Positions 59 through 61,330 of a DNA stretch of 64,000 nucleotides are shown here, in pieces. The stretch is from an uncultured bacterium (GTDB lineage: Bacteria; Patescibacteriota; Minisyncoccia; UBA6257; UBA9933), in the NCBI GenBank assembly GCA_913009635.1, contig CAJVXI010000001.1:2915-66914 (forward strand), written 5' to 3'. Each line of letters opens with the position of its first letter. Positions within the stretch are counted from its first letter, which is position 1. The notes beneath the pieces were generated by a model. It ran no database searches, was not told the origin of the DNA, and was given only the letters and a program-made list of their open reading frames with translations. Both the position numbers and the translations under genes were made by a program.

Positions 59-1247
59 GGCGGTGGCGGTTTTTGTTTTAATTTTCCTTTTGGCCGGATT
101 CTTTGGCTATAATCCATCAGCGTCTTTTTGGTCTAATTTTGAGCGTGGCGAAGGCAGTTTTCAAATGCTTCATCTTTTTATTTTTTTTATTTTATTAATT
201 TTACTTTTTAGAGATAAAGCATCTTGGCGCCGATTGTTTATTATTTCAATAATAGTCGCGAGTTTAGTTATTCTTTACGGAGTTGCCGCTAGCTTAAAAT
301 ATGTTGATGCTGAAATGATTGGCCAAGAATTATCCGGCAAAGGAGGTCCATTTTTTCAAGCTTTTCATAATTTTCCGGGCCAGGCATTTAATGCCCCGGG
401 ATTTCGTTTTGCCGGTTCGCTTGGAAATTCGGCTTATTTGGGCACTTATTTAATTTTTGCCATGTTTTATGCTTTATATCTTATAACAGAATTAAAACGT
501 AAAAAAGTTTTTCGTTATATTTTAATAGGATTAACAGCAGTTTTTATAATATTTTTATTTTTGAGCGGAACAAGAGGCGCGTTTTTGGGATTGGGAGCGG
601 CTGTTTTAGCTGGTCTGTTTTATTTATTTTCTATTTTGCCATCTGGCTGGCTTCGTAAAACAATATTATCTTTTCTTATTGTTTTAATTATTTCCAGTTC
701 ACTCGGTTTTATTTTTCGTCAATCAATACCAATATTAAATAATAGAATTTTTAATATTTCTTTTTTATCAGAAACATTTCAAACAAGATTGTTGCTTTGG
801 CATCAGTCAGTAAAGGCGTTTAATGAGCGGCCGATTTTGGGATGGGGACCTGAAAATTTTCAAGTTTCTTTTGAGAAAAATTACAATCCGTACTTTAGGG
901 TTTGGTTTGATAGAGCTCATAATATATTTTTTGATTATTTAGTTTTTGCGGGAATTTTGGGTTTACTTAGCTTTATGGCGATTTTTGTTGTTTATTATCG
1001 GCAATTCTTCAAGACACGGACTTATGCAGACGAGACACGGACTAATACGGAAAGAAGTCAGTATGAGTCAGTGTTAAGTCCGTATGAGTCTGCGTTATTA
1101 TTCTCTCTGCCTATAGCATATCTTGTCCAAGGACTGGTTCTTTTTGATGTTTTACCAATATATATTAATTTGTTTTTGTTTTTAGCGTTTGCGGTATACA
1201 AATTCCAAGCACCAAGCACCAAATTACAAATAAATTCCAATGACTAA
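27..1247 (+). CDS. O-antigen ligase / Wzy_C-like polytopic membrane protein. The start is uncertain because the 5' end lies in a repeat at the window edge. The C-terminal codons are supplied by a repeat family E fragment.
   Basis: Many TM helices. The 'SGTRGAFLGLGAAVLAGLFYLF' loop is typical of the O-antigen ligase family. It sits directly upstream of the type IV pilus genes. Confidence 0.5.
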   Translation: MFSLCKSALVVAVAVFVLIFLLAGFFGYNPSASFWSNFERGEGSFQMLHLFIFFILLILLFRDKASWRRLFIISIIVASLVILYGVAASLKYVDAEMIGQELSGKGGPFFQAFHNFPGQAFNAPGFRFAGSLGNSAYLGTYLIFAMFYALYLITELKRKKVFRYILIGLTAVFIIFLFLSGTRGAFLGLGAAVLAGLFYLFSILPSGWLRKTILSFLIVLIISSSLGFIFRQSIPILNNRIFNISFLSETFQTRLLLWHQSVKAFNERPILGWGPENFQVSFEKNYNPYFRVWFDRAHNIFFDYLVFAGILGLLSFMAIFVVYYRQFFKTRTYADETRTNTERSQYESVLSPYESALLFSLPIAYLVQGLVLFDVLPIYINLFLFLAFAVYKFQAPSTKLQINSND

Positions 1248-1287
1248 AATTTCTAATTTCTAATTTCTAATTTTTATTAAATTTTTA
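1248..1287. repeat. Short tandem repeat (ttctaat)n that fills an intergenic gap.
   Basis: The sequence reads 'aaatttctaatttctaatttctaattt'. Related copies are at 1683-1721, 7006-7041 and 61223-61262. Confidence 0.8.
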
Positions 1288-1686
1288 ATGGAACAATTTT
1301 CAAACAATAAAAACAGAGAATACGATTTAGAAGAAAGAACTGCTAAATTCGGCGAGGATATAATAGAATTTGTGAGAAATATTAAAAGAGATGATATTAA
1401 CCGCAATATTATTGTTCAATTGGCGCGAGCGGTTACCTCTATAGGTGCTAATTATTGCGAAGCCAACGCCTCCAGCTCTAAACGAGATTTCAGAAATAAA
1501 ATTTATATCTGCAAGAAAGAAACTAATGAAACGAAATATTGGTTAAGAATATTAGCCAAACACCACCCAGAATTAAAAGAAAAAATAAGAAATTTTTGGA
1601 AAGAGGCGCATGAATTGCATCTTATTTTTCAGAAAATCACTAACACTTTGGATAAAAAGCAAAAAAGTTTAGAAATTGAAAATTAG
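1288..1686 (+). CDS. Four-helix-bundle protein (23S rRNA intervening-sequence protein family, TIGR02436-like).
   Basis: The motif pattern 'QLARAVTSIGANYCEA..S.RDF..K......ETNETKYWL' matches this family. Confidence 0.6.
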   Translation: MEQFSNNKNREYDLEERTAKFGEDIIEFVRNIKRDDINRNIIVQLARAVTSIGANYCEANASSSKRDFRNKIYICKKETNETKYWLRILAKHHPELKEKIRNFWKEAHELHLIFQKITNTLDKKQKSLEIEN

Positions 1687-1721
1687 AAATTCAATAGAAA
1701 TTAAAAATTAGAAATTGAAAA

Positions 1722-3572: not shown

Positions 3573-4784
3573 ATGAGATTTCATTACATTGCGTCACAGC
3601 CAAACGGTAAAATAGTTGAAGATGAAATTGATGCCCAGGGTCCGGCTGAAGTTTTGGAATTTTTAGCCAATAAGGGTTTAAAGCCAGTTTCTCTTAAACA
3701 AATTAAGGGTTTTGAGCAGACCATTAAACGGCATATTTTCGGTCAGACAATTACGATAGATGATAAAGTTTTTTTAACAAAGTATTTGGCGTTGATGCTT
3801 AAGGTTGGCACTGATCTTTTTAAGGCAATTAATATTTTAATCGCTGATTTTGATAAGCCGTCAGTTAAAGCGTTATTGATCGAAATTCGTAATTCTTTAG
3901 AAAAGGGACAGCCATTTTATACGACTTTTGCTAAATATCCTAAATTTTTCTCACCGGTTTTCGTAAATTTAATTAAATCAGGTGAAGCGTCCGGGAATTT
4001 AGAACAAATTTTTGAAGATTTAAGCAATTCAGTTCAAAAAGAACAGGAGCTTCGCAATCGGATTAAAGCCGCTTTAACTTATCCAATTATTCTTTTAGTG
4101 GTTTCGACAATGATTCTTGTTCTATTGGTAAGTTTTGCTTTGCCGAGAATCGCGAATATTTTTATGTCCAGCGGTTTTGATCCGCCAACTTTTTCAAAAA
4201 TTGTTTTTGCAGTTGGTTTATTTTTTGGTAAATTTGTTTGGATTATTTTAGGCGTAGGAGCGCTTTTGTTATTTGGAAATTGGTTTTTTATTAGTAAAAC
4301 TTTAATTGGTAAAAGATTTATTCAGCGGTTATTTTCTAAGACACCGGTAGTAAAAACAGTTATAAAACGAATCGCCATTCAGCGTTTTGCCACTACCCTT
4401 GCATCGCTTTTAAAAGCAGGTTTGCCCATAACTGATTCTTTAGAGATTACCGCGCAAGCCGTTGGTTTCGAAGAATTAAAGGATGCTCTTTTAAGAATTT
4501 CTCGAGAGGGAATCATTAAGGGAGCGACCATTGGAGAGGCCTTTAAGCGTGAACCGTTTTTCCCAAAGACAGTTTCTAATTTGGTGGCAATTTCTGAAAA
4601 AGCCGGACATATAGAAAATATTTTAGGCGTTTTAGCCCATTTTTATGAATCAGAGATTGATTCGTCAATTAAGTCAATGGTTTCTTTTCTGGAGCCAGTA
4701 TTACTTTTGGTTATTGGATTTATAATTGGCTTAATAGCTCTTTCTATTATCGTGCCGATTTATCAGTTGGTGGGACAGTTCTAA
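3573..4784 (+). CDS. pilC: Type IV pilus platform protein PilC (GspF family).
   Basis: Two GspF-type repeats with TM helices. It lies next to pilB. Confidence 0.85.
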   Translation: MRFHYIASQPNGKIVEDEIDAQGPAEVLEFLANKGLKPVSLKQIKGFEQTIKRHIFGQTITIDDKVFLTKYLALMLKVGTDLFKAINILIADFDKPSVKALLIEIRNSLEKGQPFYTTFAKYPKFFSPVFVNLIKSGEASGNLEQIFEDLSNSVQKEQELRNRIKAALTYPIILLVVSTMILVLLVSFALPRIANIFMSSGFDPPTFSKIVFAVGLFFGKFVWIILGVGALLLFGNWFFISKTLIGKRFIQRLFSKTPVVKTVIKRIAIQRFATTLASLLKAGLPITDSLEITAQAVGFEELKDALLRISREGIIKGATIGEAFKREPFFPKTVSNLVAISEKAGHIENILGVLAHFYESEIDSSIKSMVSFLEPVLLLVIGFIIGLIALSIIVPIYQLVGQF

Positions 4785-7005: not shown

Positions 7006-7041
7006 AATTTCTAATTTCTAATTTCTAATTTTCAAATATTA
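7006..7041. repeat. (ttctaat)n tandem repeat that fills a stop-to-start gap.
   Basis: The sequence reads 'aaatttctaatttctaatttctaatttt'. Confidence 0.8.
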
Positions 7042-8544: not shown

Positions 8545-8792
8545 AAATCTTTTTTTCAAAAAAATCTTTTCCCGCCAGCCAACAATAGCGCCTAACAATT
8601 TTTCGTTCATCAGCCGTTGTCACCTCGTTCGCTTTACGATTTTCTGGCGGCTTAAAGGACGCTTCGCTCCCGTCAAAAAATCTACTCACTTCGGAACAAC
8701 GCGTTTGAATTCGCTCAAAACATTAGGCGCTATTATAGTAACAGGCTGGCCACAAAAAAGATTTTTGCTTTTCTTTGGCTACAAAAAGATTT
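8545..8792. repeat. MITE-like or structured element with ~22-bp terminal inverted repeats 'AAAATCTTTTCCCGCCAGCC ... GGCTGGCCACAAAAAAGATTTT'.
   Basis: The termini are conserved with the element at 31249-31470. The inner sequences have diverged but are homologous, and each has a nested inverted repeat. Confidence 0.6.
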
Positions 8793-9356
8793 TTATTTAT
8801 TGGTGGTTGTGTTGAAGAGCTGCGCTTGGGCAGATTGAAAGACCTTGTTAAAAATCGTGAGGTCTTTTTTTGTTATTTTTTTGAGTACAAACTCTCCGGC
8901 TTTCGCTCTTCGAGCTCTTGATACTTGTTTCGGCCTAATACCTATGCGTAAACGCCAGAAATTTTTTGTTTTCAAGGATTTAATTATTGACTCTATGCCT
9001 TTGTGTCCAGCTGAACCGCGTCCATAAGAAAATTTATATTTTTCTAATTCAATATCCGAATCATCATGAACAATTAATATTTCTTTAGGGTCAATTTTAT
9101 TATCTTTAGTGGAGAAATATTTTATTGCTGATAGTACTGCTTTTCCAGATTCATTCATAAAGACAGATGATTTTATGACATGAATTATGAATTGTGAATC
9201 ATGAATTTTGAATTTTGATGCAATAAATAATTTATGTTTTATATTCCAAGCTTCATGTTCTATGAGCCATGATAAAAAAAGTTGCCCCACGTTATGATAA
9301 GTTAAGATGTGTTGGAAATCGGGGTTCCCAAGGCCAATAATCAGCTTGATTTTCAT
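8793..9356 (-). CDS. pth: Peptidyl-tRNA hydrolase.
   Basis: 'IIGLGNPDFQHILTYHNVGQ' is the Pth N-terminal motif. Confidence 0.85.
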   Translation of the reverse strand: MKIKLIIGLGNPDFQHILTYHNVGQLFLSWLIEHEAWNIKHKLFIASKFKIHDSQFIIHVIKSSVFMNESGKAVLSAIKYFSTKDNKIDPKEILIVHDDSDIELEKYKFSYGRGSAGHKGIESIIKSLKTKNFWRLRIGIRPKQVSRARRAKAGEFVLKKITKKDLTIFNKVFQSAQAQLFNTTTNK

Positions 9357-11909: not shown

Positions 11910-12112
11910 TGTCAATATACGAATGCGTACTAATGATACGAATAAATAAATACTAATATATGATGCCAATATACTAATGGATACTAATGATACGAATAAA
12001 TACTAATTCAATTCGTATGTATTAGTATAATTAGTATGAATTCGTATATTAGCATTTCACATAAGTATAATTAGCATGAATTAGTATATTAGTATTTCAT
12101 TAAGCGAAGCGT
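11904..12112. repeat. Repeat family C copy, long form. It contains the HIT stop codon and abuts the rpsU ATG.
   Basis: The element runs 'gcgtaatgycaatatacgaatgcgtactaatgatacg ... cattaagcgaagcg' and has imperfect TIRs. Confidence 0.85.
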
Positions 12113-12322
12113 ATGGAATTAAAACGTAAACAAGGAGAACAAATAAGTTCGTTTTTATACCGCTTTTCTAAAAAAATTCAGCAAAGCGGAATTTTACGCG
12201 AAGCAAAAAAACGTCGGCATAAGGATCGTTCGACGTCTAAAAGACAAAAACGGCTTTCAGCCATTTATCGAGTTAAGAAGAAAAAAGAAGTGGAAAAGGC
12301 GAAGAAAATGGGAACACTATAA
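12113..12322 (+). CDS. rpsU: 30S ribosomal protein S21.
   Basis: The pattern 'LYRFSKKIQQSGILREAKKRRHKDRSTSKRQKR' resembles S21 (RRFKR..GIL.E.RRR..Y). Confidence 0.6.
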   Translation: MELKRKQGEQISSFLYRFSKKIQQSGILREAKKRRHKDRSTSKRQKRLSAIYRVKKKKEVEKAKKMGTL

Positions 12323-12410
12323 TTAGCCACTAGCGACTAGCCACTAGTGAATTAGTGTTGAAATAAAATTTCCTAGTGGCTAAACCCTAGTGGCTAGTGG
12401 TTTTATTTAT
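12323..12410. repeat. Repeat family B copy ('ccactagtgattag...ccctagtggctaaaccctagtggct' palindrome).
   Basis: Other copies are at 20461-20561, 47566-47656, 51937-52022 and 55596-55686. Confidence 0.85.
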
Positions 12411-12888: not shown

Positions 12889-13446
12889 ATGACGAATAAA
12901 ATATTGGTTGTGAGCTTAGAAAAAGGATTTGAAAAATTTGAGAAAGAAATAAAAAAAACAGTATTTAAAGCGTTAAGAATTTTAAAAAAGAAAAACGTTT
13001 CAGTGGAGATTTATTTGGTTGGAAGCCCAAAAATGCGGTTTTTAAACAAAAAATTTCGTGGTAAAGATAAAACAGCTGATATATTAAGTTTTGAAGAGCC
13101 CAAAAATGGCTTTATTTATCCTTCGTCATCTGCCACTGGCGGAGGCGAATCAAAATTTAAGAGAATTGGTGAAATATACCTCAATCTTGATATATCGCAG
13201 ATAAACGTAGATGAAACGCAGATAAATCCCCCACATATAAATATATGTGGGATAAACGCAAATAAAAAAATCAGCGAAAATCTGCGTAAAAATCTGCGTG
13301 GATCAGTACTTTTAGTGCATGGCTTGCTTCATCTTTTTGGCTATCATCATAATAAGAAAAATGATAAAATTAGAATGGATAAAGCGGAGCAGAAATTACT
13401 CCTTCAAATTACAGATTCCAAACACCAAGCACCAAATAACAAATAA
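12889..13446 (+). CDS. ybeY: rRNA maturation endoribonuclease YbeY carrying an in-frame ~105-bp palindromic insertion. Its C-terminal codons come from a repeat family E copy.
   Basis: The zinc motif 'VHGLLHLFGYHH' is present. The insertion at 13196-13301 encodes 'ISQINVDETQINPPHINICGINANKKISENLRKNLRG', which is not part of the conserved YbeY fold. Confidence 0.7.
   Translation: MTNKILVVSLEKGFEKFEKEIKKTVFKALRILKKKNVSVEIYLVGSPKMRFLNKKFRGKDKTADILSFEEPKNGFIYPSSSATGGGESKFKRIGEIYLNLDISQINVDETQINPPHINICGINANKKISENLRKNLRGSVLLVHGLLHLFGYHHNKKNDKIRMDKAEQKLLLQITDSKHQAPNNK
13196..13301. repeat. Palindromic mini-element (family F, 'acgcagataaa' units around 'cccccacatataaatatatgtggg') inserted in-frame in ybeY.
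   Basis: Left arm 'acgcagataaa' x2 and right arm 'aaatctgcgt' x2. A related unit sits in secF at 20698-20748. Confidence 0.75.
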
Positions 13447-13576
13447 GCACCAAATTCTAATTCGCCAGCTGGCGAACTAAACACGAGTTTCGATAATTGG
13501 AATTTCGGTCATTGAAATTTACCCCTCAGTCCTGAAATTCTCGGGGTTGAAGGATTTGTGATTTGGAATTTGTTAT
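13412..13576. repeat. Repeat family E copy ('caccaagcaccaaataacaaataa ... cgccagctggcg ... acccctcagtcctgaaattctcggggt').
   Basis: Its reverse complement is at 26602-26778. A 5' fragment forms the end of the ORF at 1196-1247. Confidence 0.85.
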
Positions 13577-18793: not shown

Positions 18794-18819
18794 ATAAAAA
18801 AGGGCTATTACCCCCCTTT

Positions 18820-19140
18820 TTATTTCATTGATTCACTTGCTTCGTCTATTAGTTTTGGAGAAGAATTAGCGTAAAAGATAATCGCGATTACAAGAGTAAT
18901 GTGATGCAAGGCGTTAAATAGAAAGCCAAGCGGCGCTTCTACTAAATGATCAATTATTGCCAAAAGAAAAGAAAAAGTGAAAATAATTGATCCTAAAACT
19001 AAATAATTAAAAGGTTTTTTAAAAATTGAACCAACAAGCGAAGCTCTGATTTTTCGGCTTTTAAAAATAAAGATTAATCCTATTAAAAAACCAATAAAGT
19101 TAAGAATTAAAACCATTAATTCAAAATAATTTTCATTCAT
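18820..19140 (-). CDS. Hypothetical small membrane protein (3 TM helices).
   Basis: The hydrophobic profile is the only evidence. Confidence 0.35.
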   Translation of the reverse strand: MNENYFELMVLILNFIGFLIGLIFIFKSRKIRASLVGSIFKKPFNYLVLGSIIFTFSFLLAIIDHLVEAPLGFLFNALHHITLVIAIIFYANSSPKLIDEASESMK

Positions 19141-19210
19141 AATTTTTTTACGTATTTTAACGACCTTTGCTTTTTATTATATTATATGATATTTTTATGT
19201 AATAAAACAA

Positions 19211-20476
19211 ATGAGTAAGAAATATTCTATAATTTTATTATTATTGATTATTATTCTGGCAATAGGAGCCGGGATTTTTATTTACCCTTTATTCAATAAA
19301 TTAAACGTTCGTCCTTGGCGTTTAGGTTTGGATTTGGTTGGTGGCAGCCATTTAATATACGAAGTGGATATGTCTCAAGTTGATAAAAAAGACAAGGATT
19401 CAGTAATGAACGGCTTAAGGGAAGTAATTGAAAAAAGAGTTAATTTATTCGGCGTTAGCGAACCTAGAGTAACTGCCAGTAAGATAGGAGAATCTTTTCG
19501 TTTAATCGTTGAATTAGCTGGCATTAAGGATATTGGAGAAGCCGTAAAAGAGATTGGCTCAACTCCACTCTTGGATTTTCGAGAAGTTATATATACACAA
19601 ATAGAAGAAAAGACGAATGATAATACAAAAGAAAGCATTCAATTCATTCCGACAAATTTAACTGGTCGTTATATGGAAGGGGCTCAACTTGATTTTAATC
19701 AAACAACAGGTGCTGCTCAAATAAATATTCAATTTAATAGCGAAGGAGCAAAAATTTTTGAAGAGTTAACTGAAAAAAATGTTGGGCAGCCATTGGCAAT
19801 TTTTCTTGATAATCAACTTATTGAAATGCCTATGGTTAGAGAAAAAATTACTGGCGGTCGGGCGCAAATTACCGGGAAATTCACGATTGATGAAGCTAAA
19901 AAAATGGTGGAGCGTTTCAATGCAGGCGCTTTACCAGCTCCAATTAATTTAATTAGTCAGTATACTATTGGAGCTAGTTTAGGTGCTAGGTCTTTGGATA
20001 GCGCAATCAAGGCAGGGGCATGGGGAATACTTCTGATAATGATTTTTATGGTTCTTTATTATAGGAGTTTTGGAGTTTTTGCTTCGCTAGCGCTTTTAAT
20101 TTACGTTATTTTGACTTTATCTGTATTTAAGAGCCTATCGATTACCATGACTTTAGCTGGTATTGCAGGATTTATTCTTTCTATTGGAATGGCAGTTGAT
20201 GCTAATATTTTAATTTTTGAAAGAACTAAAGAAGAAATCAAAAAAGGCCTTTCACGAATTTCAGCTGTTGAGGAAGGATTCAAGCGGGCTTGGTCATCAA
20301 TTCGTGATTCCAATATTGCTACTATTATTAGTTCAGTTATTTTGTATTATTCTACCTCAAGTTTTGTAAAGGGATTTGCTTTAGCGCTTTTAATCGGAGT
20401 TTTAGTTTCAATGTTTAGCGCAATAACAGTGACAAGAACAATGTTGAGAGTGTTCACGCGAGCCACTAGCGACTAG
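19211..20476 (+). CDS. secD: Protein translocase subunit SecD. Its last codons and stop lie in the repeat family B copy.
   Basis: N-terminal TM and periplasmic domain 'LGLDLVGGSHLIYEV', followed by a C-terminal 6-TM bundle. Confidence 0.9.
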   Translation: MSKKYSIILLLLIIILAIGAGIFIYPLFNKLNVRPWRLGLDLVGGSHLIYEVDMSQVDKKDKDSVMNGLREVIEKRVNLFGVSEPRVTASKIGESFRLIVELAGIKDIGEAVKEIGSTPLLDFREVIYTQIEEKTNDNTKESIQFIPTNLTGRYMEGAQLDFNQTTGAAQINIQFNSEGAKIFEELTEKNVGQPLAIFLDNQLIEMPMVREKITGGRAQITGKFTIDEAKKMVERFNAGALPAPINLISQYTIGASLGARSLDSAIKAGAWGILLIMIFMVLYYRSFGVFASLALLIYVILTLSVFKSLSITMTLAGIAGFILSIGMAVDANILIFERTKEEIKKGLSRISAVEEGFKRAWSSIRDSNIATIISSVILYYSTSSFVKGFALALLIGVLVSMFSAITVTRTMLRVFTRATSD

Positions 20477-20561
20477 CCACTAGTGATTAGTGTTGACAAC
20501 AAAGTTTTTTAGTGACTAACTCCCTAGTGGCTAGTGGCTAATTTACTAGTGGCTTAAATTT
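20461..20561. repeat. Repeat family B copy between secD and secF.
   Basis: The sequence runs 'agccactagcgactagccactagtgattag...ccctagtggctagtggctaatttactagtggc'. Confidence 0.85.
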
Positions 20562-24570: not shown

Positions 24571-24774
24571 AGCGTAATGCCAATATACGAATGCGTACTA
24601 ATGATACAAATAAATAAATACTAATATATGATGCCAATATACTAATGGATACTAATGATACAAATAAATACTAATTCGTATGTATTAGTATAATTAGCAT
24701 GAATTCGTATATTAGCATTTCACATAAGTATAATTAGCATGAATTAGTATATTAGCATTACATTAAGCGAAGCA
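24571..24774. repeat. Repeat family C copy, long form.
   Basis: Nearly identical to 11904-12112. It ends 'cattaagcgaagcaATG'. Confidence 0.85.
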
Positions 24775-30501: not shown

Positions 30502-30564
30502 ATTGGCATAATTATACCATAAATTTAGTTGTTTACAATTAACGGGAAAATGGCTATATTATAA

Positions 30565-30675
30565 AGCGTGATATCAATATACGAATGCGTACTAATGATA
30601 CGAATAAATACTAATTCGTATCCATTAGTATAATTAGCATGAATTAGTATATTAGCATTACATTAAGCGAAACGT
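30565..30675. repeat. Repeat family C copy, short form.
   Basis: It ends 'cattaagcgaaacgtATG' at efp. Confidence 0.8.
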
Positions 30676-31248
30676 ATGTTGTCTTATACCGATTTAAAAT
30701 CAGGTGTTTATATAGTGGTTGATTCACAGCCTTATTTAGTGGTGGAGTCAGAGTTTGTGAGAATGCAGCAAAGAAAGCCAGTAATGAAAACGAAAATTAA
30801 GAATTTAATAACTGGCAAAACAGCAGAGAGGTCATTTCAGCCAAGTGACAATATTGAAGAAGCTGAACTTGAAAAGATGAAAGTAATTTTCATTTACGAG
30901 AGCCGCGGAGAATACTGGTTTAGCGAGCTAAACAATCCAAAGAATAGATTTTTATTAAAAGAAGAAGAAATTGGCGAATTAGCCAAGTTTTTAAAGCCAA
31001 ATTTGGAAATTACAGCATTAAAATTCAAAGACAAAATTATTAACATTGAATTGCCAATTAAGGTTGACTATAAAGTAGTTGAAGCGCCGCCTGCCATTAA
31101 GGGTGATACTGCGCAGGGCGGAACTAAAACCGCGGTTATTGAAACTGGTGTTAAAATTACTGTTCCGCTTTTTATTCAAGAAGAAGATATAATTCGTATT
31201 AATACTCAAACTGGTGAGTATGCGGAGAGAGTAGAGAAGGGATCGTAG
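30676..31248 (+). CDS. efp: Elongation factor P.
   Basis: The N-terminal KOW-like domain has 'KPGKG'-region analogues and the three-domain length is correct. Confidence 0.85.
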   Translation: MLSYTDLKSGVYIVVDSQPYLVVESEFVRMQQRKPVMKTKIKNLITGKTAERSFQPSDNIEEAELEKMKVIFIYESRGEYWFSELNNPKNRFLLKEEEIGELAKFLKPNLEITALKFKDKIINIELPIKVDYKVVEAPPAIKGDTAQGGTKTAVIETGVKITVPLFIQEEDIIRINTQTGEYAERVEKGS

Positions 31249-31470
31249 AAAATCTTTTCTTGCCAGCCAAGCTAAGTAAAAATCTTTTCTCGTTCGTAGT
31301 GCTACACCAAATGAAAATCTTACTTCGCTCATAACTAGAAAATACCACCCTGCTACGCGGGTACCCGGTATTTTCTCTATTCGCTCAGAGATTTTCTATT
31401 CGGCTCCGCAATACTCTCTGTGAAAAGATTTTTGCTTAGTTAGTTAACGGGCTGGCTACAAAAAGATTTT
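31249..31470. repeat. MITE-like or structured element, second copy, with termini 'AAAATCTTTTCTTGCCAGCC ... GGCTGGCTACAAAAAGATTTT'.
   Basis: The termini match 8545-8792. It has the nested inverted repeat 'gctaagtaaaaatcttttc ... gaaaagatttttgcttagtt'. Confidence 0.6.
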
Positions 31471-31502
31471 CTACTAGTCTTAATTGAGAAAAATAAGAAA
31501 AT

Positions 31503-31530
31503 AAAAAAGCCGGCTTTAGAGGTAGCCGGC
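31503..31530 (-). terminator. Rho-independent terminator-like hairpin on the minus strand (gccggc..gccggc followed by a T-run on the - strand).
   Basis: On the + strand it reads 'aaaaaagccggctttagaggtagccggc'. Confidence 0.4.
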
Positions 31531-31800
31531 AACCTTTAATTTGTGGTGCTTACGCATTTCTTCTTCGTTCGAAGCACCAATTAACGAAGAATATCTCTGT
31601 CTAGTATACTCGCACGGCCGAGAAACGCCATTGTGCGATAATCTATATCTTTTGTATTGGATAACTCGCTGAGCGATTATTCAAGCAATTTCAGTGTACT
31701 ATTAATAGTATACACATATTAAAACATTTGTCAATAGTGCGCCAAAACATCTCATTTTTAGCCCAAATAAATCCCACACTTTTCATTCGAGAGGTGCGGG

Positions 31801-31840
31801 ATAAACGGCTCACACGGCGTGTGAGCCGTTTATTTTCTAA
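31801..31840 (+). terminator. Perfect hairpin 'aaacggctcacacggcgtgtgagccgttt' followed by a T-run. An identical hairpin is at 42080-42112.
   Basis: A 12-bp GC-containing stem is followed by 'attttc'. No + strand CDS lies upstream within 550 bp. Confidence 0.55.
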
Positions 31841-31980
31841 ATTTTCAATTTATCATAATTTAACGTAATCAAATTACGTTAAATTATTTAATACAAAGCG
31901 TCATTTGAATGACACTTTATTTATTGGTTAAGTTTGATAATTTGAGAAAAAAAATTTCTGATGATATAGTTTAGTTAATT

Positions 31981-33219
31981 ATGAAAGCAAAAGATAAAAA
32001 AATCGTATTCGTAGCGCTATCAGGCGGCGTTGATTCAAGTGTTGCGGCTTTATTATTAAAAAAACAGGGCTATTATGTAGTTGGTGTTTTTATGCGTTGT
32101 TGGAGAGATGAAAGCCCCGACGCTTCGGTCGGGGCAAGCTGTATGGAAAAAGATGCTGAAGATGCCAGAAAGGTGGCGGAAAAATTGGAAATTCCTTTTT
32201 ATGTTTGGGATTTTGAAAAAGAGTATAAGAAAAGAGTGGTTGATTATATGGTTAATGGTTATAAAAAAGGCATCACTCCTAATCCTGATGTAATGTGCAA
32301 TAAAGAAATCAAGTTTGGTTTGTTTTTGGAAAAAGCGCTGAAGATGGGAGCGGATTATGTGGCAACGGGACACTATGTCCGGCTTTACAGCGTTGTAAAT
32401 GTTCAAAATGTTGTAGATGTTGTAAATGAAAAACAATTACAACAAGCGAAGCGATCCAACAAGCGAAGCGATACAGCATTACAACTTTTTGAGGCTAAGG
32501 ACAAGAATAAAGACCAATCTTATTTTCTTTGGACCTTAACGCAAAAACAATTACAGCATTGCCTTTTTCCTATTGGTGATTATTTGAAGTCCGAAGTTCG
32601 GAAAATCGCTAAAAAAGCTGATTTATTAACAGCTGAGAAAAAGGATTCTCAGGGTATTTGTTTTTTGGGCAAAGTAACACTTGATGATTTTTTGGGTAAA
32701 TATATTCCTAAAAAGAAAGGGGATATTATTAATATTTCAGGGGAAAAAATCGGCGAACACAAAGGCGCTTATTTTTATACTATTGGCCAGCGGCGCGGAC
32801 TTGGAATTGGCGGCCGCCCAATAAAATTGGGCGAGTCTCGTCCCAAAGGGACGGGAGGCGCACCTTATTATGTCGTTGAAAAAGACGTTAAGAAAAACAT
32901 TATTAAAGTTGCCGAAGGAAAAAGCGAAGCGCTTTATAAAAAAGAAATTGAATTATCGGATGTTAATTTTATCAATCCTATAATTCATAATTCAAAATTC
33001 ATAATTCCAGTGTTGGCTCGGGTGCGTTATAGGCAGCCTTTAATAAAAGCCAAATTAGTAATTAGTAATCAGGAATTAGTAAATAGGAAAAACAAAAAGT
33101 CCCTAGTTACTAGTTACTATTTACTATTTACTGAGCCCATTAAATTCATCGCTCCTGGCCAGTCAGCAGTGTTTTATAGTTCAAAAGGTGAAATGTTGGG
33201 CGGAGGTGTGATAAAATAA
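31981..33219 (+). CDS. mnmA: tRNA-specific 2-thiouridylase MnmA with small repeat insertions.
   Basis: PP-loop 'VALSGGVDSSV' and the region 'CNKEIKFGLFLEKA'. In-frame repeats are at 32108-32135, 32441-32473 and 33095-33135. Confidence 0.85.
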   Translation: MKAKDKKIVFVALSGGVDSSVAALLLKKQGYYVVGVFMRCWRDESPDASVGASCMEKDAEDARKVAEKLEIPFYVWDFEKEYKKRVVDYMVNGYKKGITPNPDVMCNKEIKFGLFLEKALKMGADYVATGHYVRLYSVVNVQNVVDVVNEKQLQQAKRSNKRSDTALQLFEAKDKNKDQSYFLWTLTQKQLQHCLFPIGDYLKSEVRKIAKKADLLTAEKKDSQGICFLGKVTLDDFLGKYIPKKKGDIINISGEKIGEHKGAYFYTIGQRRGLGIGGRPIKLGESRPKGTGGAPYYVVEKDVKKNIIKVAEGKSEALYKKEIELSDVNFINPIIHNSKFIIPVLARVRYRQPLIKAKLVISNQELVNRKNKKSLVTSYYLLFTEPIKFIAPGQSAVFYSSKGEMLGGGVIK

Positions 33220-40171: not shown

Positions 40172-40204
40172 GCGGCTATTGACTCTTTATTTTTATGTTA
40201 TAAT

Positions 40205-40357
40205 TATAGCGAGTTCCAGTTAGTGATTTCTCGGATCAAATCGGATTTTCAGGGAGAACAACAGCGCTTTGGCTCTTGGGCTAAAGTTGAGTTCACCCAC
40301 TTGGCGAATAGCCGAGAGAATCCAACGGCTGGAACTCATGAAAAAGCAGTGGAATGA
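40205..40357 (+). ncRNA. Candidate structured RNA or leader. It has the long-range pairing 'gagttccag...ctggaactc', nested 'ttctcgg/ccgagaa' pairing and an intrinsic terminator hairpin 'aaaaagcagtggaatgactgcttttt'.
   Basis: The pairing was read by eye. It lies in a 330-bp gap upstream of rpmB. No family was recognised. Confidence 0.3.
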
Positions 40358-40503
40358 CTGCTTTTTCGTTTCTAAACTTACCGAAGGATTGATACTTCGG
40401 AAATGTGCTCAGTATCAATCTCCTCGAGTCTGAGTCTCGGAGTCGAAGATCTGAGCTTACCGAAGGATTGATATTTTATAAATTATTTGTAATACTTATT
40501 GTT

Positions 40504-44111: not shown

Positions 44112-44337
44112 ATTATTGACAATTATCAGCTTATTTTGTTATTATTTATAGGCCTTTAATGAGGTTTTTATTTTTCCCGATTTTATATGAGCGTAGCGAA
44201 TTAATAAAATTGAGGACCACGTTAGATAAAGCCCTGTCCCATTAGATATTTATCTAACGGGGTGGACTCATCTAACGGGGTGCTTAATTTTATAGATAAA
44301 TTTTATCGCTTTGCTCAAAAATTTATACAAAATTCGT

Positions 44338-45281: not shown

Positions 45282-45423
45282 GCTATAAATTTACAATTTT
45301 CAATTATCAATTTCTATTAAATTTACAATGACTTAATTTTCAATGACTAAACTTTTAGTCGTGTTTGCAAAATTATTGAATTAAAGATTCAATGAAAATT
45401 AAAAATTAGAAATTAAAAATTCT

Positions 45424-47565
45424 ATGCGAATGTATCCATTAGAAAAATACAGAGACATAGGCATTATTGCTCATATTGATGCTGGAAAAACTACCGTTAC
45501 AGAACGGGTTCTTTTTTATACTGGAATTTCTCATAAAATTGGTGAAGTTCATGAAGGTCAGGCAATTATGGATTGGATGGAACAAGAACGAGAGCGCGGT
45601 ATTACTATTACTTCAGCTGCTACAACTTGTTTTTGGGTTTCATCTCGTTATTTAGAAGGCGTTGATGATGATAAAGAAAAACATAAAATTCGTGAAGTTA
45701 ATGAGCATCGAGTTAATATTATTGATACACCAGGCCATGTTGATTTTACAGTTGAGGTTGAGAGATCGTTACGTGTTTTAGACGGCGGAGTAGTCGTTTT
45801 TGATGGAGTTGCCGGAGTAGAACCGCAATCAGAAACAGTTTGGCATCAGGCGGATAAGTATAAGGTACCGAGAATTTGTTTTATTAATAAACTTGATCGA
45901 ATAGGAGCGAGTTTTGAAAATTCTCTCCTTTCTATTCAAGAGCGCCTTAATTCTAATGCTGTAGCAGTCCAAATACCAATTGGTTCAGAGGCTAATTTTG
46001 AAGGCGTTATTGATTTAATTCAACTCAAGGCATTTAATTTTGATGGAGAGAGGGGTGAAAAAATTATCAAAAAAGACATTCCAGAGAATCTTAAAGAAGA
46101 AGTTGAAAAATACAGGCATATTTTAGTTGAAAAAATTGTTGAGCATGATGAAAATTTAATGACAAAATATTTAGATGGCAAGGAAGTTTCTGAAGACGAA
46201 CTCCGTTCTGTTTTAAGGAGAGCTACTATAGATAATAAATTAATTCCGGTGCTTTGCGGTTCAGCTTTAAAAAATAAAGGAGTTCAATTGGTGCTTGACG
46301 CGGTTTTGGATTATTTGCCGTCTCCTTTGGATATATCGGAATCAAAAACAATAAAAGGAATTGATCCGAAAACCGACAAAGAAATTGTACGTCAACCAAA
46401 AGATGATGAGCCGTTTACAGCTTTGGCTTTTAAAATTGCTACTGATCCTTTTGTGGGAAGTTTAACTTATTTTAGAATTTATAGCGGTGCTCTTAAACGC
46501 GGAAGTTATATTTTAAATTCATCTAAAGGAAAACAGGAACGGATAGGTAGAATTGTTAGAATGCACGCTGACAAAAGAGAAGAGGTTGAAGAAATGTACG
46601 CAGGCGACCTTGGAGCTATTGTTGGATTAAAAGGAACTACTACCGGCGATACGCTTTGCGATATTGATAACCAAATTATTTTAGAAAAAATTATTTTTCC
46701 TGAACCGGTAATTTCTATTAGAATTGAACCAAAAACAAAAGCTGACCAAGAAAAAATGGGAATAGCAATGAGACGTTTAGCTGAGGAAGATCCGACTTTT
46801 AAAGTAGGAGGTGATCCTGATACTGGTGAAACAATTATTTCCGGAATGGGAGAGCTTCATTTAGAAATTCTTGTTGATAGAATGAAAAGAGAGTTTAGTG
46901 TTGAGGCCAATATCGGTCGTCCACAAGTTGCTTATAGAGAAACAATTAAGGGAACTGCTGAAGCTGAAGGAAAATATATTCGTCAGTCTGGCGGTCGCGG
47001 TCAATATGGTCATGTTTGGCTAAAAGTAAATACATTAGAAATGGGCAAAGGATTTATTTTTGTCAATAAAATAAAAGGTGGAATTATTCCCCAAGAATTT
47101 ATTCCTGCCATTGAAAAAGGCGTTAAAGAAGCAACAAATAAAGGGGTTTTAGCCGGATATCCCGTAACTGATATTGAAGTGACTCTTTATGACGGTTCTT
47201 TTCATGATGTTGATTCTTCAGAAGCAGCTTTCAAGATTGCCGGTTCAATGGCTTTTCAAGAAGCAACCAGAAGAGCTAAGCCAGTTATTTTAGAGCCAGT
47301 AATGAAGATTCAAGTAATTGCGCCAGCGGAATTTCTTGGTGATATTACAGGTGATCTTAATGCTAAGCGCGCTAAAATTGAATCAATGGGAGACAGAGGC
47401 AATATAAAAATTATTGATTCTAAGGTTCCTTTAGCTGAAATGTTTGGTTACGCAACAAAATTACGTTCTATGACTCAGGGTCGAGGAAGTTTTTCAATGG
47501 AATTTGATCATTATGAAGCAGTGCCGAATAATATTGCTCAGATGATAATAGAAGGGAAAAAGTAG
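45424..47565 (+). CDS. fusA: Elongation factor G.
   Basis: G-domain 'AHIDAGKTT' and 'DTPGHVDF', at full length. Confidence 0.95.
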
Positions 47566-47656
47566 AATAGCCACTAGCCACTAGTGATTAGGGTTTAGGG
47601 TTTTAATTTAAGTATTTTAACCCTAGTGGCTAAACCCTAGTGGCTAATCACTAAAA
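47566..47656. repeat. Repeat family B copy.
   Basis: It fills the gap from the fusA stop to the ATG at 47657. Confidence 0.85.
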
Positions 47657-47860
47657 ATGGATACTTATTTAAAAATTAAACAAACCTTAAATAATAGCAG
47701 TGGCTCTTGTGTTGTTCTTCGTAAAGGCGATCCTTATTGCGTAGTAATGACTTGGCAAGAGTATGAAAAATTTGCTAATATAATTAATGATAATAAAAAA
47801 TTAAAAAACGGTCGAGAAAAAATTGGAAATGGGGTTGACATAAATAGTATCCCCGTGTAA
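47657..47860 (+). CDS. Small Phd/YefM-like (antitoxin-fold) protein inserted between fusA and tuf.
   Basis: 'GSCVVLRKGDPYCVVMTWQEYEKFANI' resembles the Phd/YefM 'vitr.gkpvaVlms.eeye'. Confidence 0.35.
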   Translation: MDTYLKIKQTLNNSSGSCVVLRKGDPYCVVMTWQEYEKFANIINDNKKLKNGREKIGNGVDINSIPV

Positions 47861-47939
47861 AATTAAAAATTATGAAACATGAAGTATGAAGCGTGAAACA
47901 TAAAGTTTCAAGTTTCAAGTTTCAAGTTTCAATAGAAAT

Positions 47940-51936: not shown

Positions 51937-52022
51937 CTAGCCACTAGCCACTAGCCACTAGTGATTAGGGTTTAGGGTTTTAATTTTTAACCCTAGTGGC
52001 TAAACCCTAGTGGCTAATCACT
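51937..52022. repeat. Repeat family B copy that fills the rplW-rplB gap.
   Basis: 'ctagccactagccactagccactagtgattagggtttagggtttta...ctaatcactATG'. Confidence 0.85.
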
Positions 52023-53228: not shown

Positions 53229-53311
53229 GTATGAATTATGAATTGGAAATTAAGAATTAGAGGTAATAATTTATAATTCAAAAATCAATATTTTTAATTA
53301 AAACCAACAAT

Positions 53312-55369: not shown

Positions 55370-55606
55370 ATGAAACGTAAATTACAAGGAATAATAGTTT
55401 CAGATAAAATGAATAAAACTAGAGTGGTAAGCACTACTCGGCTTAAAAAACATTCAAGATATTTGAGGCGTTATAAAGTAACCCAAAAATTTAAGGCGCA
55501 TGATGAAAATAACGAATATAAAATTGGTGATAAAGTTATTATTGAAGAAACGAAACCAATAAGTAAAGATAAACGGTGGATTATAAAAAGCAAAATTAGC
55601 CACTAG
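55370..55606 (+). CDS. rpsQ: 30S ribosomal protein S17. Its last codons and stop lie within the repeat family B copy.
   Basis: 'KLQGIIVSDKMNKTRVV'. Confidence 0.9.
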   Translation: MKRKLQGIIVSDKMNKTRVVSTTRLKKHSRYLRRYKVTQKFKAHDENNEYKIGDKVIIEETKPISKDKRWIIKSKISH

Positions 55607-55686
55607 CCACTAGTGATTAGGGTTTAGGGTTTTAATTTAAGTATTTTAACTCTAGTGGCTAAACCCTAGTGGCTAATCACTAATAT
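55596..55686. repeat. Repeat family B copy that fills the rpsQ-rplN gap.
   Basis: 'ttagccactagccactagtgattagggtttagggtttta...ggctaatcactaatatATG'. Confidence 0.85.
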
Positions 55687-56052: not shown

Positions 56053-56158
56053 GCGTAATGCCAATATACAAATGCGTACTAATGATACGAATAAATACTA
56101 ATTCGTATCCATTAGTATAATTAACATGAATTAGTATATTAGCATTTCATTTATTAGT
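56053..56158. repeat. Repeat family C copy, short form, that fills the rplN-rplX gap.
   Basis: 'gcgtaatgccaatatacaaatgcgtactaatgatacg...'. Confidence 0.85.
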
Positions 56159-58197: not shown

Positions 58198-58399
58198 CGT
58201 AATGCCAATATACAAATGCGTACTAATGATACGAATAAATAAATACTAATATATGATGCCAATATACTAATGGATACTAATGATACGAATAAATACTAAT
58301 TCGTATATATTAGTATAATTAGCATGAATTCGTATATTAGCATTTCACATAAGTATAATTAGCATGAATTAGTATATTAGTATTTCATTAAGCGAAGCG
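58198..58399. repeat. Repeat family C copy, long form, that fills the rplF-rplR gap.
   Basis: Nearly identical to 11904-12112 and 24571-24774. Confidence 0.85.
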
Positions 58400-61222: not shown

Positions 61223-61262
61223 TAAAAAATTTCTAATTTCTAATTTCTAATTTCTAATCAAT
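61223..61262. repeat. (ttctaat)n tandem repeat.
   Basis: 'aaaaatttctaatttctaatttctaatttctaatc'. Confidence 0.8.
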
Positions 61263-61330
61263 TTTTAATGTTCTAATGTTTAAAAATTAAAGAATTATAA
61301 ATTTATTAAAAATTAATAATTAAAAATTCT

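Follow-up and report, generated by a model that had tools for sequence, protein, structure and literature searches.

The DNA analysed here is a stretch of 64,000 nucleotides (hereafter the window) from contig CAJVXI010000001.1 of an uncultured bacterium of the Patescibacteria (candidate phyla radiation, CPR), and our subject is a family of palindromic repeats, family B, which occupies several of its gene junctions. The window has 33% G+C, carries nearly all its genes on the + strand and includes str/S10/spc ribosomal genes, secD, secF, ftsA and ftsZ. Its SecD protein is 100% identical to that of one annotated Candidatus Wolfebacteria metagenome-assembled genome, and this SecD is present on independent ENA, Logan and NCBI assemblies from marine metagenome runs. 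The five copies of family B listed in the original prediction (12323-12410, 20461-20561, 47566-47656, 51937-52022 and 55596-55686) are all present, all between protein-coding genes and none in rRNA. Every copy is an imperfect palindrome and folds into a hairpin, with RNA minimum free energies of -37.4, -42.1, -36.8, -36.0 and -32.7 kcal/mol for copies 1 to 5 and z-scores of -4.0 to -6.2. The core CCCTAGTGGCT, allowing one mismatch at most, occurs 16 times in the window versus 0.21 expected from shuffles. The secD-secF copy is identical base for base in six independent assemblies of the same organism (ENA, Logan and NCBI; L127-L132), and is thus no assembly artefact.

The arms of these palindromes are built from 7-nt modules. 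Those of the left arm are TAGCCAC (two or three times), TAGTGAT and TAGGGTT (twice), whereas the right arm, AACCCTA GTGGCTA AACCCTA GTGGCTA ATCACTA, is made of complements of left-arm modules (...CTAGTGGCTAAACCCTAGTGGCTAA), so that the two pair into stems of about 30 bp. In copy 3 the left arm begins 2 nt past the fusA stop (TAG 47563-47565) and displays five TAG triplets at 7-nt spacing between 47568 and 47598. Copies 3 and 5 are 94% identical, loop included; copy 4 carries three TAGCCAC units instead of two and a shorter loop. A TAG or TAA recurs every 7 nt in the arms and, since CTAG is self-complementary, the second strand has stops at the same spacing. Consequently, the 7-nt stop period closes all frames on both strands, the six of them within 21 nt. 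Modules occur in shuffled order between arms, and different elements do not align in register, which is unfavourable to a covariation analysis of the stems. Positions are collected in Table 1.

Table 1. Repeat arms, loops, repeat-coded protein tails and related cassettes, in window coordinates
Feature	Position	Strand	Remarks
Copy 1 (subfamily B1)	12324-12400	+	between rpsU (native stop 12320-12322) and yqeY (ATG 12411)
Copy 1 arms	left 12324-12357, right 12372-12400	+	relative L125 has a 17-nt spacer here
Copy 2 (subfamily B1)	20461-20554	+	between secD and secF; secD stop 20474-20476 in second module
Copy 2 arms	left 20461-20493, right 20510-20554	+	
Copy 3 left arm	47568-47603	+	TAGCCAC TAGCCAC TAGTGAT TAGGGTT TAGGGTT
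Copy 3 loop	47604-47619	+	looks like an ORF remnant, by alignment to 3' ends of 4HB genes
Copy 3 right arm	47620-47654	+	ACCCTAGTGGCTAAACCCTAGTGGCTAATCACTAA; ends 2 nt before ATG at 47657
Copy 4	51938-52022	+	between rplW (TAA 51934-51936) and rplB (ATG 52023)
Copy 5	55597-55683	+	between rpsQ and rplN (ATG 55687)
Repeat-coded SecD tail (ATSD) and stop	20462-20476	+	
Repeat-coded S17 tail (SH) and stop	55598-55606	+	TAG 55604-55606
Family E (GCACCAA modules) at ybeY	13410-13460	+	tail ...TDSKHQAPNNK-stop, stop 13444-13446
Family E at Wzy_C-domain ORF 27-1247	1197-1247	+	tail ...FQAPSTKLQINSND-stop
TTTCTAA-cassette left arm	1248-1287	+	sister family; upstream:downstream flank z = -5.9
4HB gene in TTTCTAA-cassette 'loop'	1288-1686	+	PF05635, E = 4e-15
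TTTCTAA-cassette right arm	1687-1721	+	TTAGAAA-type complement
ORF-less TTTCTAA cassette	45282-45423	+	between rpsG and fusA; ATG ACT TAA start-region remnant kept
ORF-less TTTCTAA cassette	61223-61330	+	after secY; 83% and 74% repeat matches
Solo arm of TTTCTAA family	7006-7041		

The 7-nt period marks the spacers of the window as a whole. Identity at lag 7 is 0.356 in intergenic versus 0.28 in coding DNA, and nine perfect tandem arrays have period 7, with none at periods 5, 6 or 8-11. As this strict detector finds perfect arrays only and misses mixed-word arms like those of family B, a test on phased stops was added: runs of at least four TAA or TAG at spacing 7 number 12 on the + strand and 14 on the - strand, against 0-2 at other spacings. 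Those of the + strand are all wholly intergenic except two, which overlap only the last codons of secD and rpsQ. The same spacing dominates in 620 kb of loci that were not picked by the motif (29 runs at spacing 7 versus 1-7 at the others). Of the 51 co-directional spacers measuring 25 nt or more, 27 contain, by hand count, sequence that recurs at least three times elsewhere in the window. Significant folding is found in most spacers above 60 nt, and spacers make up 11.8% of the window compared with about 2-5% in relatives (a hand estimate from spacer lengths). Stems start between 16 nt before and 3 nt after a stop codon and finish 2-10 nt before a start codon. Several repeat families coexist, with words including TTTCTAA, AAAATCA, CGACTAA, GCACCAA and TAGCGAATA; family B mixes at least three words as an inverted pair, unlike one directly repeated word.

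Syntenic relatives have empty sites where the window has family B. The secD/secF junction is an ATGA overlap in L124, 3 nt in L133 and 10 nt in L123, versus a 100-nt element in the window, where the bases before the secF ATG (TAAATTT) still resemble the relatives' secD tail. Similarly, the rpsU-yqeY gap measures 17 nt in L125 and 88 nt in the window. The family-B copies are therefore insertions, at junctions which overlap or span at most 17 nt in syntenic relatives.

Their sequence is also widespread. The exact 23-mer CTAGTGGCTAAACCCTAGTGGCT of the right arm occurs at 42 loci in GTDB representative genomes, mostly of Kaiser-, Harrison-, Sungii- and Saccharibacteria and Paceibacterota, and also in two bins labelled Nanoarchaeota and Acidobacteria; the G+C content of these loci varies between 38 and 57%. 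It never lies inside a spanning open reading frame (ORF), its usual place being 5-18 nt before a start codon or at the 3' end of a gene. Relative to the flanking genes its orientation is biased but not fixed (14 '++' versus 4 '--'), so that we claim no strict strand specificity. Six upstream ORFs read into the 23-mer and all end LVAKP-stop; four of them encode four-helix-bundle (4HB) proteins and one SmpB.

These observations bear on the idea that the hairpins are a local punctuation of operons, non-mobile, produced by heptamer slippage and fold-back copying and retained for an effect on expression, for instance by protecting mRNA 3' ends, by stalling ribosomes at stops or by enforcing translational coupling at the stem base. 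The regular placement of the stems, beginning near a stop and ending just before a start, would suit such roles, and repetitive extragenic palindromes (REPs) located within 15 nt of a stop codon do stall ribosomes (PMC12306157). Arrays also seem able to arise in place. In the 87%-identical relative L123, the secD-secF junction (1485-1520) contains a tandem array, GTGAATC ATGAATA ATGAATT ATGAATA, evidently derived from the secF start-codon region, which suggests 7-nt duplication on the spot; similar ATGAATT arrays occur in the window at 9180-9207 and 53231-53258. The ybeY-ftsA junction likewise has different arrays in the window and in the Hainich relative L124, whose YbeY C-terminus ...FLISNF-stop is encoded by three TTTCTAA units (4738-4761), and such differences between genomes indicate array turnover. 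Slippage, however, accounts for the length of an array and not for the dispersal of one composite sequence: unlinked junctions share loops as well as arms (94%), 23-mers are identical across phyla in loci of very different G+C content, and close relatives function with overlapping genes and no hairpin. We consider punctuation by itself an improbable explanation, with a small but real chance of being right.

The family-B arms are also connected with 4HB genes of family PF05635 (S23p, '23S rRNA intervening-sequence protein', Avd-like). In four loci selected through the motif (L007, L019, L029 and L030), such a gene has TAGCCAC/TAGGGTT modules upstream, that is left-arm modules TAGCCAA TAGCCAC TAGCGAC and similar, and the 23-mer at its 3' end; it thus sits in the 'loop' of a family-B palindrome. 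Three contigs (L148, L149/150 and L151) were then chosen blind, by homology to this B-type 4HB protein, and in each the gene lies between TAGCCAC/TAGGGTT arrays and the complementary ones; the left arm in L149 also contains the end of the upstream RRF gene. Among the best 120 clusters of B-type homologues, the C-terminus is VAKP in 53, and L[VAL] stands at the corresponding positions in 87, because the right arm is translated. A phmmer search with the window 4HB protein missed the B-type subfamily, which was recovered with a small profile.

The loop of copy 3, together with the first bases of its right arm, aligns to the last codons (...LNKLIST) of B-type 4HB genes, over 45 columns with the 3' ends in L019 and L030 and with about 16 identities in 21 positions upstream of the arm. 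For example, TTAATTTAAGT-ATTTTAACC followed by CTAGTGG in the window aligns with TTAAATAAATTGATTTCAACC followed by CTAGTGG in L019. The window copies look like what would be expected of internal-deletion derivatives, in which the arms and a remnant of the ORF are kept.

A sister family with TTTCTAA arms displays both forms within the window itself, with a 4HB gene between inverted arms at one site and ORF-less cassettes at two others. In four further gene neighbourhoods (DUF7619/peptidase M16, DprA/TopA, sigma/DUF5667 and LigA/FtsW), homologues of this gene carry the same arms. Across varied Patescibacteria, more than 100 clusters hold homologues of the 4HB protein encoded at 1288-1686 at 80-90% identity. 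SecD and L14 are less conserved between genomes of the same kinds, falling to about 80% in the nearest relatives, a difference consistent with a recent horizontal spread of this cassette. The closest solved relative of this protein is the pentameric four-helix bundle 2rld, and that of the B-type protein XCC0516, 2gsc. Other 4HB genes go with other words, GTATCGN in L035 and AAACCTT/AAACTTT for the second gene in L144. To put numbers on this association, 17 4HB genes chosen without any repeat motif were examined by comparing the 70 nt upstream with the 3' flank as a shuffle-normalised z. Flank complementarity reached z <= -3 for 12 of the 17 versus 20 of 564 control ORFs (Mann-Whitney p = 3e-8), with an excess of lag-7 periodicity on both flanks (p = 8e-6 and 1e-8). 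Raw duplex energy of the flanks, tried as a discriminator, was abandoned: it gave no separation from controls, G+C content being dominant.

We therefore think it likely that family B is the gene-less form, comparable to a miniature inverted-repeat transposable element (MITE), of a mobile cassette resembling rRNA intervening sequences (IVS) and widespread in Patescibacteria. The full cassette would consist of a 4HB gene of about 120 codons between inverted 7-nt arrays. What the data show is that the copies are insertions, that they share their arms with the ORF-bearing cassettes, and that they have an ORF remnant, a hairpin and stops in all frames.

REPs offer another precedent for hairpins of this kind. 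Extragenic palindromes could be copied as folded single-stranded DNA by a single-copy REP-associated tyrosine transposase (RAYT, an IS200-like Y1 enzyme), independently of any 4HB gene, and family B does recall the REPs of E. coli, its hairpin doublets of about 90 nt being extragenic, numerous within operons and frequently no more than 15 nt from a stop. Yet no Y1 transposase or RAYT appeared among the 20 window ORFs scanned against Pfam or NCBIfam, arrays of 7-nt modules do not resemble REP consensus motifs, and the arms are those that frame 4HB genes, with loops retaining a 4HB 3' remnant. We give this origin only a slight chance. Still less probable, in our opinion, is that the arrays act at the DNA level, the CTAG-centred modules (e.g. 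the palindrome CACTAGTG) being operators or sites for a nucleoid protein and the RNA hairpin incidental. Conservation of the 23-mer across phyla, and the fact that each 4HB subfamily has its own heptamer word, do hint at sequence-specific recognition, but we see no tie to promoters for sites located within the S10/spc ribosomal operon, and the arms are always paired in inverted order. Moreover, recognition of the arrays by the 4HB protein would be compatible with the cassette explanation and not in competition with it.

The original prediction also proposed that the repeats supply the C-terminal codons and stops of upstream genes, and its individual readings were accurate. At secD, CGA GCC ACT AGC GAC TAG encodes RATSD and the stop at 20474-20476, and at rpsQ ATT AGC CAC TAG encodes ISH and the stop at 55604-55606, each in the second left-arm module. 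For family E, YbeY ends ...HQAPNNK-stop and ORF 27-1247 ends ...YKFQAPSTKLQINSND-stop (hand translation of 1197-1247); the DNA at 1197-1247 is 82% identical to the 3' end of ybeY, the two genes being unrelated. Homologues of SecD (n = 60) end ...RVF[TIV]K plus 0-4 residues, the closest one (87% identity) with ...RVFTKRES-stop, against ...RVFT-RATSD-stop in the window, of which 4-5 residues are repeat-coded. In the window protein the match to the NCBIfam SecD model reaches its end at residue 412 of 421, leaving the conserved core intact. Comparing tails and junctions with those of relatives, we conclude that the insertion took place a few codons before the end of secD, and that a non-conserved tail was replaced together with the stop. 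The S17 proteins of relatives end RWxxxxK[IS]-stop, often overlapping L14, and that of the window gains only SH. YbeY has 185 aa in the window versus 137 aa in a relative, with an 11-residue tail from GCACCAA modules. In all three proteins, the comparison with orthologous C-termini reveals repeat-coded residues that are extra or replace native ones. The window ybeY (12889-13446) also holds an in-frame palindromic element of about 105 nt (13200-13304, -42 kcal/mol) preceding the HGxLHLxGYxH motif, and this adds about 37-40 residues (...SQINVDETQINPPHINICGINANKKISENLRKNLRGS...) missing from the 137-aa orthologue of L124.

As a rule for the window, the claim goes too far. The genes fusA (TAG 47563-47565), rplW (TAA 51934-51936) and rpsU (TAA 12320-12322), which encode EF-G, L23 and S21, keep their own stops 0-2 nt before the element. 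In the syntenic block, 10 of 16 orthologue pairs preserve the native last residue and stop, with the element starting right after. Insertion just inside the 3' end with supply of a new stop thus holds for a minority (SecD, S17 and YbeY) and fails for most genes, and to say that the repeats define C-termini is overstated because most genes are untouched. We suppose that insertions would be tolerated at cistron boundaries only and that, for an element placed slightly upstream of a native stop, the first module reached in frame would terminate the protein after a repeat-coded tail of 2-11 residues; this would explain the tails of SecD, S17 and YbeY in the window and of SmpB and RRF elsewhere. Stops in every module would in this way let insertions survive at or slightly inside the 3' ends of genes.

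The other possibility raised in the original prediction, a mechanism that recognises stop codons and sets the repeat in a fixed register, now seems hardly credible. Three of the five family-B copies do start 0-2 nt past a native stop. With all families considered, there are 27 well-repeated co-directional spacers, of which about half have the left repeat edge located 2-5 nt inward from the end of the stop codon and nine more have it deeper within the ORF. We examined 85 phased-stop arrays abutting ORFs of at least 100 codons in the window and about 110 non-redundant loci, where some long ORFs of G+C-rich loci may be spurious. Stops fell in array phases 0, 7 and 14 in 19, 18 and 27 cases, with no preferred phase, and the stop in use lay 3-12 nt upstream of the array in 20. 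The same arms are found 2-18 nt upstream of starts, beside convergent genes and around 4HB genes. Since the ancestral spacers were 0-17 nt long, an insertion that survived had to lie against a stop; the presence of a stop in each 7-nt module, with selection against intragenic insertion, suffices to explain the placement without stop recognition.

Rho-independent terminators or attenuators, suggested by strong G+C-containing hairpins and by TTTTATTT after copy 1, can practically be dismissed, as no T run is present in the sequences after copies 3-5 (AATCACTAAAA, AATCACT and AATCACTAATAT), these copies received no sense-strand terminator-like call, and copies separate L23/L2 and S17/L14, which must be co-expressed. 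Several other candidates were dropped: integron attC sites and CRISPR/TIGR arrays (the elements lie between housekeeping genes and have no spacer structure), Shine-Dalgarno/anti-Shine-Dalgarno complementarity (no GGAGG in the elements) and promoters (the elements are too near start codons).

The association between PF05635 genes and inverted arrays extends beyond Patescibacteria. A tblastn search of the B-type protein against 72,556 plasmids gave 38 records, mostly from Nostoc, Calothrix, Anabaena and other cyanobacteria, and most of the 14 plasmid-borne PF05635 genes examined had flanking short-period arrays. In N. edaphicum, GTAGGGA (8 units) lies upstream and TCCCTAC (5 units) downstream of the gene; the corresponding pairs are GGGAACA (4 units) and TGTTCCC (7 units) in Nostoc C052, CAGGTGA and TCACCTG in Anabaena 90, where the gene lies between cas6 and cas4, and AAAGGGA and TCCCTTT in Geminocystis. 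Inverted heptamer arrays are likewise present on both sides in Picosynechococcus (between cmr2 and cmr3), N. punctiforme, Stanieria, Riemerella (Bacteroidota) and Azospirillum. A metagenomic survey of cas genes had reported PF05635 genes wedged into cas operons, without mentioning repeats. Since PF05635 proteins are Avd homologues (PMC10053308), a nucleic-acid-binding accessory role is plausible by analogy.

How would such a cassette persist inside essential operons? In the transcript, the stop of one gene and the start of the next would meet at the base of the stem, and this juxtaposition may keep the coupling once given by an ancestral ATGA overlap. By analogy with rRNA IVS, the stem is probably cleaved by RNase III, leaving the operon mRNA harmlessly split. 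Only rRNA helices and gene junctions would then be tolerated, because the transcript, as we propose, is cut without ligation. The RNase III signature ERLEFLGD is encoded in three motif-carrying loci. The 4HB protein would be a candidate cofactor or array binder, and the length of the arrays may change through slippage of units.

More tentatively, PF05635 genes and inverted heptamer arrays might form one pan-bacterial class of selfish 'intervening' cassettes. These would settle only where a transcript can stay cut, in rRNA helices and at cistron junctions, would be excised from RNA by RNase III and would spread with the aid of their own array-specific 4HB protein, conceivably via an RNA intermediate, in the way that Avd works with the reverse transcriptase of diversity-generating retroelements. 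That genes and arrays are associated is shown by the present data and seems to hold across phyla, but this picture as a whole is one we would put forward as possible and not as expected. If it were true, ORF-less derivatives would account for the junction palindromes that saturate some CPR genomes, and also for the long unexplained heptamers of cyanobacteria (short tandemly repeated repetitive sequences, STRR) and Beggiatoaceae. A full-text literature search found no earlier description of the gene-array link, but most subscription journals were outside its scope and one may exist; in the same search, only a paper on the Coxiella IVS connects a PF05635/TIGR02436/S23p gene with heptamers.

Several points weigh against the reading of family B as a cassette derivative. 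Mobility is deduced from presence or absence among relatives (about 78-87% SecD identity) and from dispersed near-identical copies. At the filled and empty junctions compared, no target-site duplication could be defined, the flanking TA being uninformative because each module is bounded by TA, and no transposase, integrase or RAYT linked to the elements was found. The 64-kb window contains no B-type 4HB gene, and the match to the ORF remnant is short (about 20 nt) and AT-rich. Some PF05635 genes deviate from inverted heptamers: those of Nostoc 7120, which lacks complementary arms, and of Calothrix carry an array on just one flank, and that of L068 carries none; the Pseudanabaena plasmid L162 carries GCTAAAA (14 units) upstream and GCCAAAA (10 units) downstream, direct and not inverted, and the Gemmatirosa plasmid L164, from a G+C-rich genome, has 8-nt units, CTCCTGCC. 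Cleavage by RNase III, as well as any role of the 4HB protein, is proposed by analogy. Finally, a family-B-like element lies at the S17-L14 junction of the distant locus L062 (7660-7724 and about 10068; L14 61% identical, 36% G+C), whose S17 ends ...KATSQ-stop inside the element, and the closer relatives L043 and L045-L049 are without it. This points to recurrent use of the junction, and could reflect site preference or function rather than passive survival.

The cassette explanation nevertheless makes sense of hairpin-filled junctions in an ultra-small genome. Short tails common to unrelated proteins (ATSD-stop, SH-stop, LVAKP-stop, QAP...) would be repeat-derived, a point relevant to annotators and to builders of CPR protein families. 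It joins three topics usually kept apart, namely rRNA IVS, the heptamer repeats found in several phyla and the 'four helix bundle protein' family, very abundant though functionless. That each 4HB subfamily has its own 7-nt word suggests, in concrete and testable form, a binding target for the protein. Were the stems RNase III sites, the elements would amount to unspliced intervening sequences in operon mRNAs, and a selfish element could thereby occupy essential operons such as S10/spc at little cost.

Other features of the window deserve mention. An ORF of 67 codons (47657-47860), without Pfam or NCBIfam match, lies between fusA and tuf, which are normally adjacent; with family B upstream and a heptamer palindrome of ATGAAAC/GTTTCAA type downstream (47861-47939), it could be a further cargo gene. 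The RNR-secD spacer (18794-19210) holds a 106-codon minus-strand ORF (18820-19140) without family match and, being only 47-48 nt long in L124 and L133, is a lineage-specific insertion in its window version. The largest repeat family comprises copies of about 200 nt (11910-12112, 24571-24774 and 58198-58399), forming hairpins of -53 to -60 kcal/mol, and of about 100 nt (30564-30664 and 56053-56158), in single and doubled forms with words such as ATACTAATG and ATACGAAT. Long non-coding stretches at 8545-8792 and 31249-31980, with inverted ends AAATCTTTT...GCCAGCC and GGCTGGC...AAAAGATTT, represent a different and larger element type. The structured spacers at 40172-40404 (-90.8 kcal/mol, z -5.2) and 44112-44310, just upstream of rpsL (-70.3 kcal/mol, z -6.2), may, from their predicted folds, be uncharacterised leaders or small RNAs. 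Rfam at gathering score gave no match over the whole window, rRNA included, and at E <= 0.1 nothing for the long structured spacers 31200-32000, 40172-40404 and 44112-44310; no tRNA or tmRNA was detected in the 64 kb. The Shine-Dalgarno-like GGAGG is rare before start codons of the window, and the relatives' junctions are AT-rich, without Shine-Dalgarno and often overlapping.

Among known systems, the REP/BIME (bacterial interspersed mosaic element)/REPIN (REP doublet forming a hairpin) sequences of proteobacteria share with family B their nature of extragenic imperfect palindromes in inverted pairs, within operons and in many copies. They are mobilised by RAYT, and have neither the heptamer substructure nor the phased stops nor a cargo-bearing form. 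MITEs, such as the Correia elements of Neisseria, are short, non-coding, internally deleted derivatives keeping the terminal inverted repeats of their parent, located at gene boundaries and co-transcribed. Family B has in common with its ORF-bearing element the arms and about 20 nt of the ORF 3' end, and the TTTCTAA family presents ORF-bearing and ORF-less copies in the same window. Unlike MITEs, the parent cassette is without recognisable transposase, the 4HB protein not being a known one. Rickettsia palindromic elements, which become coding sequence, find a direct parallel in the in-frame insertion of about 40 residues in the window ybeY; these are read through in frame, whereas family B terminates every frame and adds short tails only.

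Heptamers are a feature of two further types of repeats. The STRR of cyanobacteria, reportedly described by Mazel et al. in 1990, are said to be tandem 7-nt units in intergenic DNA of Nostocales, forming dispersed direct arrays. To our knowledge they have not been tied to any gene, and inverted heptamer arrays flank PF05635 genes on plasmids of Nostoc, Anabaena and other cyanobacteria. The TAACTGA heptamers of marine Beggiatoaceae, cyanobacteria and Bacteroidetes are direct repeats suspected of horizontal spread (MacGregor 2015, PMC4679880), and that study comes nearest to describing heptamers with stops which overlap the ends of upstream genes within ribosomal operons. Like family B, they consist of 7-nt units with stops in three frames, intergenic and within ribosomal-protein operons; they often lie just upstream of starts without Shine-Dalgarno, and 13 sets overlap the stop of the upstream gene (PMC4679880). 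They are made of one word, directly repeated, with no hairpin and no reported link to 4HB proteins, unlike the several inverted words of family B.

The closest counterparts are the rRNA IVS with an S23p/PF05635 ORF from Coxiella, Leptospira and Brucella, which, like the cassette proposed for family B, have terminal inverted repeats, a stem of about 28-30 bp and a 4HB ORF in the loop. ORF-less forms of about 100 nt are also known (Salmonella), and the copies of the window likewise have no ORF. In Coxiella, the 23S IVS has a 28-bp stem which is cut by RNase III and whose loop holds the S23p ORF; two or three tandem GACAGAT heptamers, their number varying between strains, precede the ORF (PMC4990558). 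Such IVS are tolerated since the transcript is cut without religation, and display a patchy distribution that resembles horizontal gene transfer (PMC4990558; PMC11270868). The window elements differ in lying between protein-coding cistrons and not in rRNA helices 25/45, and in having arms that are entire arrays of stop-containing modules, with dozens of copies and several families per 64 kb. Their excision by RNase III would be, by analogy, the operon counterpart of what takes place in these rRNAs.

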